From Escherichia coli (lineage in GTDB: Bacteria > Pseudomonadota > Gammaproteobacteria > Enterobacterales > Enterobacteriaceae): a stretch of 23,209 nt of DNA. A program made the position numbers and the translations under genes. This document shows, piece after piece, positions 1 through 13,500 of this stretch. Each line of letters begins with the position of its first letter. Within the stretch, counting starts at the first letter, position 1. The notes beneath the pieces were generated by a model, which had not been told where the DNA came from, searched no databases, and saw nothing but the letters and a program-made list of their open reading frames with translations. The DNA lies in the NCBI RefSeq assembly GCF_003334355.1, contig NZ_QOWP01000045.1. The stretch is one strand, 5' to 3'.

Positions 1-73
1 GGAACCCACCGAAATGATTCAGGCGACAGCCTGAACGTAGCAGGGATCCACGTCCTTCAGGGCGTGGAGGATG

Positions 74-1877: not shown

Positions 1878-1949
1878 GCGGGAAAACTATTTCGCAACGT
1901 CGCGCTTGTGGCTAAAATAGCCGCCATTTTTCAGCTACTGGATAAGAAT

Positions 1950-3911
1950 GTGACCGTATCTTCTCATCGACTTGAACTGTTAAGCCCGGCACGCGATGCC
2001 GCCATTGCCCGCGAAGCTATTTTGCACGGTGCCGATGCTGTTTATATCGGCGGCCCTGGTTTTGGTGCCCGTCATAATGCCAGTAATAGCCTGAAAGATA
2101 TTGCCGAGCTGGTGCCGTTTGCCCATCGTTATGGTGCAAAAATTTTCGTCACGCTTAACACCATTTTGCATGATGATGAGCTGGAACCCGCGCAACGGCT
2201 GATTACTGACCTCTACCAGACCGGTGTCGATGCGCTGATTGTTCAGGATATGGGGATTCTGGAACTTGATATTCCGCCGATTGAACTGCACGCCAGTACG
2301 CAGTGCGACATTCGTACAGTAGAAAAAGCGAAGTTCCTCTCTGATGTTGGCTTCACGCAGATTGTGCTGGCGCGAGAGCTGAATCTTGAGCAGATCCGCG
2401 CGATTCACCAGGCTACGGACGCGACCATTGAATTCTTTATTCATGGGGCACTGTGCGTGGCCTATTCGGGTCAGTGCTACATTTCTCATGCGCAAACAGG
2501 GCGTAGCGCCAACCGTGGCGATTGCTCGCAGGCGTGCCGTTTGCCATACACATTGAAAGACGATCAGGGGCGGGTGGTTTCCTATGAAAAACATCTGCTG
2601 TCGATGAAAGATAACGATCAGACTGCCAACCTCGGCGCGCTGATTGATGCTGGTGTACGCTCCTTCAAGATTGAAGGGCGTTACAAAGATATGAGCTACG
2701 TGAAGAATATCACCGCCCATTATCGCCAGATGCTTGATGCCATTATTGAAGGCCGTGGCGATCTGGCGCGCGCTTCATCAGGTCGTACTGAACATTTCTT
2801 TGTTCCATCGACGGAAAAGACTTTCCACCGTGGTAGCACAGATTATTTTGTGAATGCCCGTAAAGGCGATATTGGCGCGTTCGATTCGCCGAAATTTATC
2901 GGCCTGCCGGTAGGCGAAGTATTGAAAGTGGCGAAAGATCATCTCGATGTCGCCGTTACCGAGCCACTGGCAAATGGCGATGGCCTGAACGTGTTGATTA
3001 AACGTGAAGTCGTCGGTTTTCGTGCCAATACGGTCGAGAAAACCGGAGAAAATCAGTACCGCGTCTGGCCCAATGAAATGCCAGCAGATTTGCACAAAAT
3101 TCGTCCACATCACCCACTAAACCGTAATCTTGATCATAACTGGCAGCAGGCACTGACAAAAACCTCCAGCGAACGTCGGGTGGCGGTAGACATTGAACTG
3201 GGCGGCTGGCAGGAACAACTGATTCTGACCCTCACCAGTGAAGAGGGTGTCAGCATCACGCATACGCTGGACGGGCAGTTCGACGAAGCCAATAACGCCG
3301 AAAAAGCAATGAACAATCTGAAGGATGGTCTGGCAAAACTGGGGCAAACCCTCTATTACGCCCGCGATGTGCAAATTAATTTGCCGGGGGCGCTGTTTGT
3401 ACCAAACAGTCTGTTAAACCAGTTCCGCCGTGAAGCTGCTGACATGCTGGATGCTGCGCGTCTTGCCAGTTACCAGCGCGGCAGCCGTAAACCGGTTGCT
3501 GATCCTGCGCCGGTTTATCCGCAAACGCATCTGAGTTTCCTCGCGAACGTATACAACCAGAAAGCGCGTGAATTTTATCATCGCTATGGTGTGCAGCTGA
3601 TTGACGCGGCGTATGAAGCACATGAAGAGAAGGGCGAAGTCCCGGTGATGATCACCAAGCATTGTCTGCGCTTTGCCTTTAATCTGTGCCCGAAACAGGC
3701 GAAAGGCAATATCAAAAGCTGGAAGGCGACGCCAATGCAACTGGTTAACGGCGATGAAGTATTAACGCTAAAGTTTGATTGCCGCCCATGCGAGATGCAC
3801 GTCATTGGCAAAATCAAAAATCACATACTGAAAATGCCGTTACCGGGAAGCGTAGTGGCATCCGTAAGTCCGGATGAGCTGCTGAAAACATTGCCTAAGC
3901 GAAAAGGGTAA
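1950..3911 (+). CDS. ydcP: Peptidase U32 family protein (YdcP/RlhA-like), about 653 aa
   Basis: Long ORF (track 1908..3911, GTG at 1908). U32-like N-terminal region (LELLSPARD..., GADAVYIGG...) and conserved Cys-containing segments. Start is uncertain: in-frame GTG at 1950 would give the 653 aa I recall for YdcP, GTG at 1908 gives 667 aa; no in-frame ATG near the 5' end. Confidence 0.8.
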   Translation: MTVSSHRLELLSPARDAAIAREAILHGADAVYIGGPGFGARHNASNSLKDIAELVPFAHRYGAKIFVTLNTILHDDELEPAQRLITDLYQTGVDALIVQDMGILELDIPPIELHASTQCDIRTVEKAKFLSDVGFTQIVLARELNLEQIRAIHQATDATIEFFIHGALCVAYSGQCYISHAQTGRSANRGDCSQACRLPYTLKDDQGRVVSYEKHLLSMKDNDQTANLGALIDAGVRSFKIEGRYKDMSYVKNITAHYRQMLDAIIEGRGDLARASSGRTEHFFVPSTEKTFHRGSTDYFVNARKGDIGAFDSPKFIGLPVGEVLKVAKDHLDVAVTEPLANGDGLNVLIKREVVGFRANTVEKTGENQYRVWPNEMPADLHKIRPHHPLNRNLDHNWQQALTKTSSERRVAVDIELGGWQEQLILTLTSEEGVSITHTLDGQFDEANNAEKAMNNLKDGLAKLGQTLYYARDVQINLPGALFVPNSLLNQFRREAADMLDAARLASYQRGSRKPVADPAPVYPQTHLSFLANVYNQKAREFYHRYGVQLIDAAYEAHEEKGEVPVMITKHCLRFAFNLCPKQAKGNIKSWKATPMQLVNGDEVLTLKFDCRPCEMHVIGKIKNHILKMPLPGSVVASVSPDELLKTLPKRKG

Positions 3912-4423: not shown

Positions 4424-4454
4424 TTGTTGATATACTCAGCGGCAGGGAGGCGAT

Positions 4455-4631
4455 GTGAAACAAAGCGAGTTCAGACGTTGGCTCGAATCTCAGGGCGTCG
4501 ATGTAGCGAATGGCAGCAACCATTTGAAACTCAGGTTTCATGGGAGGCGCAGTGTCATGCCGCGTCACCCTTGCGATGAGATTAAAGAACCATTGCGTAA
4601 AGCAATCCTGAAACAACTCGGTTTGAGTTAA
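4455..4631 (+). CDS. hicA: HicA toxin (mRNA interferase) of the HicAB type II toxin-antitoxin system, 58 aa
   Basis: GTG start at 4455 preceded by GGGAGG (4445-4450); stop TAA 4629-4631. Translation MKQSEFRRWLESQGVDVANGSNHLKLRFHGRRSVMPRHPCDEIKEPLRKAILKQLGLS is the HicA dsRBD-like toxin. Below the 60 aa track cut-off, so not in the ORF list. Confidence 0.85.
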   Translation: MKQSEFRRWLESQGVDVANGSNHLKLRFHGRRSVMPRHPCDEIKEPLRKAILKQLGLS

Positions 4632-12363: not shown

Positions 12364-12557
12364 TTTTGCCACCTTTTATCATTGCCCCTATGTGTATAGT
12401 ACGGGTTAAGAAAATCCGCAATAATACTCATTCTGAAGATGGATAAGGGCAAGTTGCTGTTTGATGATTTTTTCTCAAACTGGTGAAAAAACTTGATGCA
12501 CGTCAAAAAATGACGCATATTTGCGCGCGTTTTATTCATCTGGCTGGACGCCCGTAC

Positions 12558-12731
12558 ATGTCTCTCTATCAACACATGCTTGTTTTTTATGCGGTTATGG
12601 CAGCAATCGCATTTCTTATCACCTGGTTTCTTTCTCACGATAAGAAACGCATCCGTTTCTTAAGCGCCTTTCTGGTGGGGGCAACATGGCCGATGAGTTT
12701 CCCGGTGGCGCTGTTGTTTTCACTGTTTTAA
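12558..12731 (+). CDS. ortT: Small membrane toxin OrtT (orphan toxin, GhoT-like), 57 aa
   Basis: ATG at 12558 gives MSLYQHMLVFYAVMAAIAFLITWFLSHDKKRIRFLSAFLVGATWPMSFPVALLFSLF, two predicted TM helices, matching OrtT (YdcX) from memory. The track ORF 12483..12731 is an upstream extension from a GTG with no RBS. Confidence 0.7.
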   Translation: MSLYQHMLVFYAVMAAIAFLITWFLSHDKKRIRFLSAFLVGATWPMSFPVALLFSLF

Positions 12732-12816
12732 ATCTTACTCACTGGCTTGACGGCACCACGCAGACTTATATCATTTGGATGAATCGATAAATTTCACAAG
12801 TGGCTAAGGAGAAAGT

Positions 12817-13050
12817 ATGTCGCATCTGGATGAAGTCATCGCGCGCGTGGATGCCGCGATTGAAGAGAGCGTCATTGCCCATATGAACGAATTATTAATC
12901 GCCCTGAGCGATGACGCGGAGTTAAGTCGGGAAGATCGCTACACCCAGCAGCAACGTCTGCGCACAGCGATCGCCCATCACGGTCGCAAGCATAAAGAAG
13001 ATATGGAAGCGCGCCATGAACAGTTAACCAAAGGCGGCACCATCCTGTGA
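12817..13050 (+). CDS. ydcY: Small soluble charged protein of unknown function, 77 aa
   Basis: ORF 12817..13050 with AGGAG RBS (AAGGAGAAAGTATG). Position and sequence match YdcY from memory. Confidence 0.7.
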   Translation: MSHLDEVIARVDAAIEESVIAHMNELLIALSDDAELSREDRYTQQQRLRTAIAHHGRKHKEDMEARHEQLTKGGTIL

Positions 13051-13500
13051 TTAAAATGAGCGTCTGGCTACCAACCAGGCGCCAACCACAAGTAAAATTG
13101 CGCCACAAATTGGGCCGAACAACGCCCGTAGTGGTACGCCATGACTGCGGAAGATATCCAGAACCAGACCGCCAATCAGCTGACTGGCGACCAGTACTGC
13201 AATAGTTGTCGCCGCTCCCACATTCTGATATCCGCTGATACTGGCGAAGACAAAAAACGATCCCAGCAAGCCAGGTATAAGTGTCCACCAGCGCACGCTG
13301 GACACCAGTTCGCCAAACCCCGCCATGCCTTGTTTAAACCATAAAATAGAAACAAAGAGCACAATCCCCACCAGTGAGTTCAGCAACATGGCGATGAGAA
13401 TGGTAGAGGAGGTCTGGGTGATGCGCACCATCAGCGTGTTCTGGACAACCAGACCAATTCCGGCGGCAATCAAAAAAGCAAGGGTGAGCGACTGATTCAT
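13051..13500 (-). CDS. ydcZ: Inner membrane protein (DUF606-type), 149 aa
   Basis: Minus-strand hydrophobic ORF. Its ATG (13500-13498) overlaps the mnaT stop (ATGA overlap), implying a mnaT-ydcZ operon. Its stop abuts the ydcY stop with zero intergenic spacing. Confidence 0.8.
   Translation of the reverse strand: MNQSLTLAFLIAAGIGLVVQNTLMVRITQTSSTILIAMLLNSLVGIVLFVSILWFKQGMAGFGELVSSVRWWTLIPGLLGSFFVFASISGYQNVGAATTIAVLVASQLIGGLVLDIFRSHGVPLRALFGPICGAILLVVGAWLVARRSF

Follow-up and report, generated by a model that had tools for sequence, protein, structure and literature searches.

The stretch of DNA analyzed here (the window, 23,209 nucleotides) is Escherichia coli chromosome and carries, in order, ydcO, sutR (ydcN), rlhA (ydcP), yncJ, and hicAB. 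The sutR coding sequence occupies positions 1341 to 1877 of the plus strand, as given by the list of open reading frames, the RefSeq annotation of strains with the same or nearly the same sequence, and a codon walk; all other features described below lie on the same strand. The coding sequence of rlhA, the gene for the 23S rRNA 5-hydroxycytidine C2501 synthase, is placed at 1950 to 3911 (653 amino acids [aa], GTG start) on the grounds of RefSeq, orthologue starts, and residue numbering. An earlier note on this DNA had recognized the gene as ydcP of the U32 family, and this identification, under the present name rlhA, was borne out by the K-12 b1435 locus, near-identical DNA, and a PF01136 domain.

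The rlhA frame is bounded on its 5' side by TAA at 1875 to 1877, which is the stop codon of sutR, and ends with the stop codon at 3909 to 3911. An in-frame GTG at 1908 opens 667 codons and an in-frame GTG at 1950 opens 653 codons; the earliest in-frame ATG lies at 2250, codon 114 of the 667-aa form, and the codon walk thus agreed with the earlier note that the start is a non-ATG codon and that there is no ATG near the 5' end. Further in-frame near-cognate codons between both GTGs are ATA at 1917, ATT at 1926, and CTG at 1938. The 653-aa product has the N-terminal sequence MTVSSHRLELLSPA, and the 667-aa form would carry in addition a 14-aa extension, MAKIAAIFQLLDKN, with (M)AKIAAIFQLLDK as its N-terminal peptide. 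With the trinucleotide frequencies of the window, the probability that 24 codons stay open is 0.37 and that of at least one ATG, GTG, or TTG in such an open run is 0.74, so an open 24-codon extension with a second start is what chance would give.

The 501 nucleotides (nt) around the start were present in 5414 of 5426 E. coli genomes, with 99 to 100% identity in 3495 complete genomes, and the annotation of this region in complete E. coli genomes was always sutR plus rlhA. The first canonical start codon in the open frame is GTG 1908, which could be read as the main start of a 667-aa protein, but RefSeq does not use it: the RefSeq/PGAP start of rlhA was the equivalent of window position 1950 in every strain inspected (K-12 MG1655, E2865, APEC O1, and divergent strains). 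In K-12 MG1655, this start is position 1506781 of NC_000913.3 (GTG 1908 corresponds to 1506739) and the protein is NP_415952.2 (b1435).

Domains and residue numbering of the protein

The protein contains a Peptidase_U32 domain (PF01136; hmmscan E = 1.8e-74) encoded at 2184 to 2864, i.e., residues 93 to 319 of the 667-aa form and 79 to 305 of the 653-aa form, and DUF3656 (PF12392; hmmscan E = 4.5e-20), encoded at 3120 to 3464 (residues 405 to 519 of the 667-aa form), which marks the RlhA subfamily and is found solely in RlhA among the four U32 paralogues of E. coli (PMC5727448). The U32 signature EFFIHGALCVAYSGQCYIS at 2430 to 2486 constitutes residues 161 to 179 of the 653-aa form and includes Cys169 and Cys176, and the conserved part of the N terminus opens with LELLSPA, from residue 8 of that form. 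Since both candidate starts precede all of these, U32 domain, signature, and LELLSPA are intact either way. The earlier note had supposed that the choice of N terminus decides whether the U32 motif is intact; with PF01136 starting at about residue 79 and the signature 161 residues past the 1950 start, it does not. No solved structure gave a sequence match at E ≤ 0.001.

Residues E161, C169, C176, C580, and C611 matter for RlhA, the four cysteines being essential (Kimura 2017, PMC5727448). The positions published in that study (E161, H165, C169, Q175, C176, C580, and C611) fit the numbering of the 653-aa form, and none of them match that of the 667-aa form, a misfit that counts against GTG 1908 as main start. 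The window protein shows the characteristics of the RlhA subfamily, namely, PF01136, PF12392 downstream of it, E161 and the four cysteines, and orthology to b1435.

Sequence signals around the two GTG codons

Neither GTG is preceded by a strong Shine-Dalgarno (SD) sequence, as the earlier note had observed. For the 20 nt before 1908, the anti-SD duplex energy was +1.2 kcal/mol (no pairing; worse than 96% of the window positions), and for the 20 nt before 1950 it was −3.1 kcal/mol, near the value for random positions (mean, −2.3 kcal/mol). Of the two codons, GTG 1950 alone has any SD complementarity, which comprises 3 to 4 nt at background-level energy and short spacing and lies within a weak SD-like GGAUAAG at 1940 to 1946, 3 to 7 nt 5' of the start codon (see also PMC9841429, Table 2). 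The RNA from 1926 to 1990 was unusually unstructured, with a minimum free energy of −5.2 kcal/mol compared to −10.2 ± 2.4 kcal/mol for shuffled sequences (z = +2.09), and 199 of 200 shuffles folded at least as well as the native RNA. Low mRNA structure is typical of genuine start regions.

A consensus scan identified a promoter-like element at 1891 to 1918, composed of a −35-like TTCGCA (1891 to 1896), a 16-nt spacer, and a −10-like TAAAAT (1913 to 1918), with a GC-rich discriminator, AGCCGCC (1919 to 1925), directly 3' of the −10-like element. As read from the sequence, this arrangement would put the transcription start at about 1925 to 1927, i.e., 3' of GTG 1908. The −10 block (CTGACTACAATAGCCGCCATTT in other genera) and AGCCGCC are kept in at least 15 genera of Enterobacteriaceae, and their flanks diverge. 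A start at GTG 1908 would thus lie inside the promoter-like element and 5' of the probable transcription start, which argues against it as the main start.

The same region can form a 7-bp hairpin, GUGGCUA-AAA-UAGCCGC, at 1908 to 1924 (terminator scan; folding energy, −8.9 kcal/mol), followed by a T-run at 1927 to 1931, and in this hairpin GTG 1908 is itself base paired. Hairpin and T-run are terminator-like and possibly act as a weak terminator of sutR. The hairpin is specific to Escherichia and is not kept in Enterobacter, Leclercia, and Salmonella, although the primary sequence is. The conserved block was accordingly rejected as a terminator, the hairpin being absent from Enterobacter and Leclercia despite the kept sequence; loss of the hairpin with retention of the sequence indicates that it is the DNA that is conserved, in keeping with a promoter that would start transcription past GTG 1908. 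A leader RNA element in 1700 to 2200 was likewise rejected, since no Rfam family was detected in this interval save a chance snoRNA match (E = 0.52).

Since hairpin and T-run (1908 to 1931) would be at best a weak terminator, read-through mRNA from sutR into rlhA that carries GTG 1908 is plausible, and both starts might then be used, GTG 1950 for the most part and GTG 1908 for a minor 667-aa proteoform made from such transcripts. The frame is indeed open from the sutR stop codon, GTG 1908 is invariant in the seven sequences compared below, and the use of alternative in-frame starts in E. coli at large has been documented, according to a preprint abstract (bioRxiv 10.1101/520783). However, GTG 1908 has no SD sequence, is paired in the hairpin, and is not conserved, and there is no sign of a function of the extension. 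We consider use of both starts improbable.

Conservation of the start in orthologues and in the U32 family

The DNA pattern AATAGCCGCCATTT N10 GGATAA, taken from the conserved block, was searched in a species-representative genome collection and retrieved 65 stretches, of which 57 were analyzable, 2 were chance matches without the gene, and 6 were cut by locus ends. Together with the window, the 57 loci made up a comparison of 58 sequences from at least 15 genera of Enterobacteriaceae. As these loci were selected through an exact match to upstream DNA, conservation of the block among them is in part by construction; three loci fetched by protein (L004 from Salmonella, L005 from Enterobacter, and L006, Phytobacter-like), in which the block had first been recognized as conserved and noncoding, showed the same upstream motif. 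In 56 of 58 sequences, the codon at exactly −8 relative to the Glu of ELLSPA was a canonical start (52 ATG and, solely in Escherichia, 4 GTG), the two exceptions being a locus with a one-codon deletion and ATG at −7 (L037) and one with a probable frameshift (L034). In 32 of 58 sequences, no canonical start other than the −8 codon was in frame. From GGATAA to the start, the spacer measured 4, 5, 7, 8, 9, 10, or 11 nt, and the stretch before the start is therefore not under codon constraint.

Of the 58 sequences, 43 had CTG as the equivalent of GTG 1908, 2 had TTT or ATC, and 13, from Escherichia and the Kosakonia group, had GTG; in 30, this codon did not share the frame of the gene, and altogether it was a nonstart codon or out of frame in 45. 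In the three loci fetched by protein, the ATG aligned with GTG 1950 of E. coli and a CTG aligned with GTG 1908, and the upstream region was out of frame in the Enterobacter locus. The near-cognate CTG 1938, whose counterpart was ATG in Kosakonia, TTG in Salmonella, and an out-of-frame ACG in Enterobacter, was rejected as a conserved start. Within Escherichia, GTG 1908 was invariant, with the frame open, in the seven E. coli and Escherichia albertii sequences compared, the window included. Escherichia sp. MOD1-EC7003 lacks GTG 1908, an IS200/IS605-type element abutting 1910/1911, a loss that counts weakly because it is a single recent insertion event. Strain NCTC9082 has a 1-nt insertion in the T-run and was set aside as a probable assembly error, since sutR and rlhA are both marked as frameshifted in that assembly.

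At the protein level, the best 120 homologues (88 to 92% identity; Salmonella, Enterobacter, Kosakonia, and others) mostly had the N terminus MRLQSHHL or MRQQPHYL, which places 8 residues before ELLSPA and matches M(GTG)TVSSHRL of E. coli. A phmmer search of 1.84 billion cluster representatives, with residues 1 to 200 of the 667-aa form as the query, gave 11,981 matches, and in the best 150 of these the alignment started at query residues 15 to 22, with two exceptions, a match from residue 10 and a fragment of E. coli type with 99% identity (P0205) that aligned from residue 1; save for this fragment, the 14-aa extension thus had no homologue in the best 150 family representatives. Among 144 representatives (50% identity clusters), the median number of residues ahead of ELLxPA was 6, with 8 or fewer in 112 and at least 22, the number that the 667-aa form would have, in 6. 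For the paralogues TrhP and UbiU, the NCBIfam profiles aligned from residues 21 to 22 of the 667-aa form. Alignment to U32 family N termini, one of the checks proposed for the ambiguity in the earlier note, hence favored 1950. The lack of variation at GTG 1908 among the E. coli and E. albertii sequences compared and the in-frame GTG at the equivalent position in the Kosakonia group speak for GTG 1908 as the main start, but taken with the signals and the residue numbering described above, the pattern across the family makes this extremely improbable.

Published work on rlhA and the overlapping AUG

The gene ydcP was identified as rlhA, needed for 5-hydroxycytidine at C2501 (ho5C2501) of 23S rRNA in K-12 (Kimura 2017, PMC5727448). 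Replacement of what was called the 'unusual GUG start codon' of rlhA by AUG gave almost complete ho5C2501 already in exponential phase, the low RlhA level was attributed by the authors to the suboptimal start codon, and high ho5C2501 slows translation (Fasnacht 2021, PMC8754641). We take the mutated GUG to be the GUG at 1950, because of the BW25113 annotation cited by those authors. Neither rlhA, ydcP, nor sutR had an entry in the supplements of the TRAINSPOTTER N-terminomics or Ribo-RET preprint, in the Cappable-seq supplement (searched by gene name and by K-12 coordinates of both genome versions), or in the Romero 2014 dRNA-seq or SMRT-Cappable-seq supplements.

The GTG at 1950 is overlapped by an out-of-frame ATG that is immediately followed by TGA (ATGTGA, 1948 to 1953), and an AUG at 1948 might, by termination-reinitiation at this start-stop, contribute to or compete with initiation at GUG 1950, as a regulatory ambiguous start. 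AUGUGA sites can act by RF2-dependent termination-reinitiation, and rlhA is listed among the atGTG genes (PMC9841429). In Table 2 of that study, however, rlhA (atGTG start, SD UAAG, aligned spacing [DtoStart] of 7, abundance of 3.8 ppm) is predicted to be unambiguous. Moreover, the T1949A variant removes ATG 1948 from APEC O1, E69, CRECJHTL34, and E. albertii, and at least one difference within 1878 to 1952 occurs in 1528 of 5414 E. coli genomes; ATG 1948 is therefore not conserved even within E. coli. A contribution of this AUG seems unlikely to us, and it would modify, not replace, the start at 1950.

Interpretation

RefSeq, the orthologues, the family-wide N termini, the SD pairing and RNA structure, and the literature agree in favoring 1950, and the start that the earlier note had considered ambiguous can be assigned: translation of rlhA very probably begins at GTG 1950 and yields a 653-aa protein, and GTG 1908 (1908 to 1910) is then a chance codon in a promoter and hairpin region, judged a nonfunctional start by anti-SD pairing, hairpin, and conservation. 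Initiation at GTG 1950 would give a U32-family RlhA required for hydroxylation of C2501 in 23S rRNA, the role of the protein in the window strain being presumed from K-12. The 42 nt from 1908 to 1950, which look like coding sequence, would be noncoding and comprise the −10 element of the rlhA promoter, the discriminator, and a leader of about 24 nt, and the comparative data are consistent with a conserved promoter and leader. The weak SD (GGAUAAG) together with the GUG start would hold the level of RlhA low.

The gene, its GTG 1950 start, and the effect of the weak start are already known, and the significance of the present analysis is small: the correct N terminus fixes the residue numbering for RlhA mutagenesis, and the GUG start and poor ribosome-binding site are confirmed as the source of low, nonsaturating RlhA, as previously proposed in the literature. 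A modest addition is that a GTG start with a shortened leader appears, in this sample of Enterobacteriaceae, to be specific to Escherichia: all 4 Escherichia sequences had GTG and a 4-nt spacer, and all 52 of the −8 starts in other genera were ATG, mostly with a 9- to 10-nt spacer. Since an AUG start drives ho5C2501 near completion and high ho5C2501 slows translation (Fasnacht 2021), we tentatively propose, as a possibility somewhat short of an even chance, that the weak start was derived in the Escherichia lineage and tuned RlhA down, such that C2501 modification became substoichiometric and growth phase dependent. If true, Salmonella, Enterobacter, and others may modify C2501 nearly fully.

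Comparison with known systems

The closest known system is rlhA/ydcP (b1435) of E. coli K-12, with the same locus, synteny, GTG start, length of 653 aa, PF01136 and PF12392 domains, and essential cysteines; the 501 nt around the start are 99.8 to 100% identical, and the strain differs by a few single-nucleotide polymorphisms and in nothing substantive. The orthologues in Salmonella, Citrobacter, Enterobacter, Kosakonia, Leclercia, and other genera (654 aa; 88 to 92% identity) start at the same distance from ELLSPA and share the upstream promoter-like block with the window. Outside Escherichia, the orthologues start with ATG, 9 to 10 nt from GGATAA, whereas in Escherichia the start is GTG at 4 nt. 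In the Kosakonia/Phytobacter group, another ATG occurs in frame 6 codons farther upstream, and gene callers report lengths of 660 to 663 aa for these proteins.

Like the atGTG/AUGUGA sites described in PMC9841429, rlhA has its annotated GUG inside AUGUG; with the A that comes next, the other frame reads AUG-UGA, a start-stop. The example of start-stop reinitiation tested in that study is narQ, and no rlhA-specific experiment is reported there. In comparison with other AUGUGA sites, the SD of rlhA spans only 4 nt and its aligned spacing is short (DtoStart of 7), the start is predicted to be unambiguous, and the ATG varies between strains. The paralogues TrhP (YegQ), UbiU, and UbiV share with RlhA the N-terminal ELLxPA fold start and the U32 domain but are without DUF3656 (PMC5727448), and RlhA scores far below the equivalog cutoffs of these paralogues (173 versus 534 bits for TrhP).

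Conserved sequence upstream of rlhA

Upstream of the rlhA start, a block reading (C/G)TG(A/G)CTA(C/A)AATAGCCGCCATTT, followed 10 nt on by GGATAA (window 1908-1945), was kept in at least 15 genera of the Enterobacteriaceae. This block looks like a −10 element that has C at position −13 and is followed by a GC-rich discriminator, and in the other genera its GGATAA lies too far from the ATG to serve as a Shine-Dalgarno sequence. In Escherichia sp. MOD1-EC7003 (locus L046), the equivalent of window 1910/1911 borders positions 1-230 of the locus, which comprise the C-terminal end of a transposase of the IS200/IS605 type and a hairpin-rich element terminus. These take the place of the sutR side and of the −35-like region. 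An extended −10 sequence, TGC-TAAAAT, is formed at the element junction, and the rlhA open reading frame is intact (653 amino acids, 99.1% identical).

Start and reading frame of rlhA in other genera

In the Kosakonia/Phytobacter group (loci L006, L008, L039, L043, L048, L054, L056, L057, L064, and L071), a second in-frame ATG was found 6 codons 5′ of the conserved rlhA start (MDNDDC-MRLQ...). Gene callers gave product lengths of 654, 660, or 663 amino acids in this group; the two-ATG ambiguity of the start in these genera is therefore real. In Citrobacter amalonaticus AUH_CA_2023_1 (L034), the rlhA frame is broken by an extra C in a C-run shortly 3′ of the ATG; this points either to an error in sequencing or to a pseudogene.

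Other genes in the window

The window starts with the end of insQ (window 1-34; IS609 TnpB-type, RNA-guided endonuclease family), which adjoins ydcO. In strain E2865, a CatB-related O-acetyltransferase gene is annotated between patD and yncL; transferred from that strain, its coordinates are approximate (window ~12380-13189) and may shift, since identity with E2865 does not extend over the whole window.

Overlapping start-stop sequences

The rlhA GTG start is overlapped by the start-stop sequence ATGTGA (window 1948-1953), in which an out-of-frame ATG is immediately followed by TGA. Because T1949A abolishes this ATG in APEC O1, E69, CRECJHTL34, and E. albertii, the out-of-frame ATG is variable within the species. 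The same ATGTGA arrangement is present at the start of hicA (window 4453-4458; annotated GTG at 4455), there with a strong GGGAGG upstream. Both hicA and rlhA are included in Table 2 of the paper on overlapping atGTG/AUGUGA start sites of E. coli (PMC9841429).
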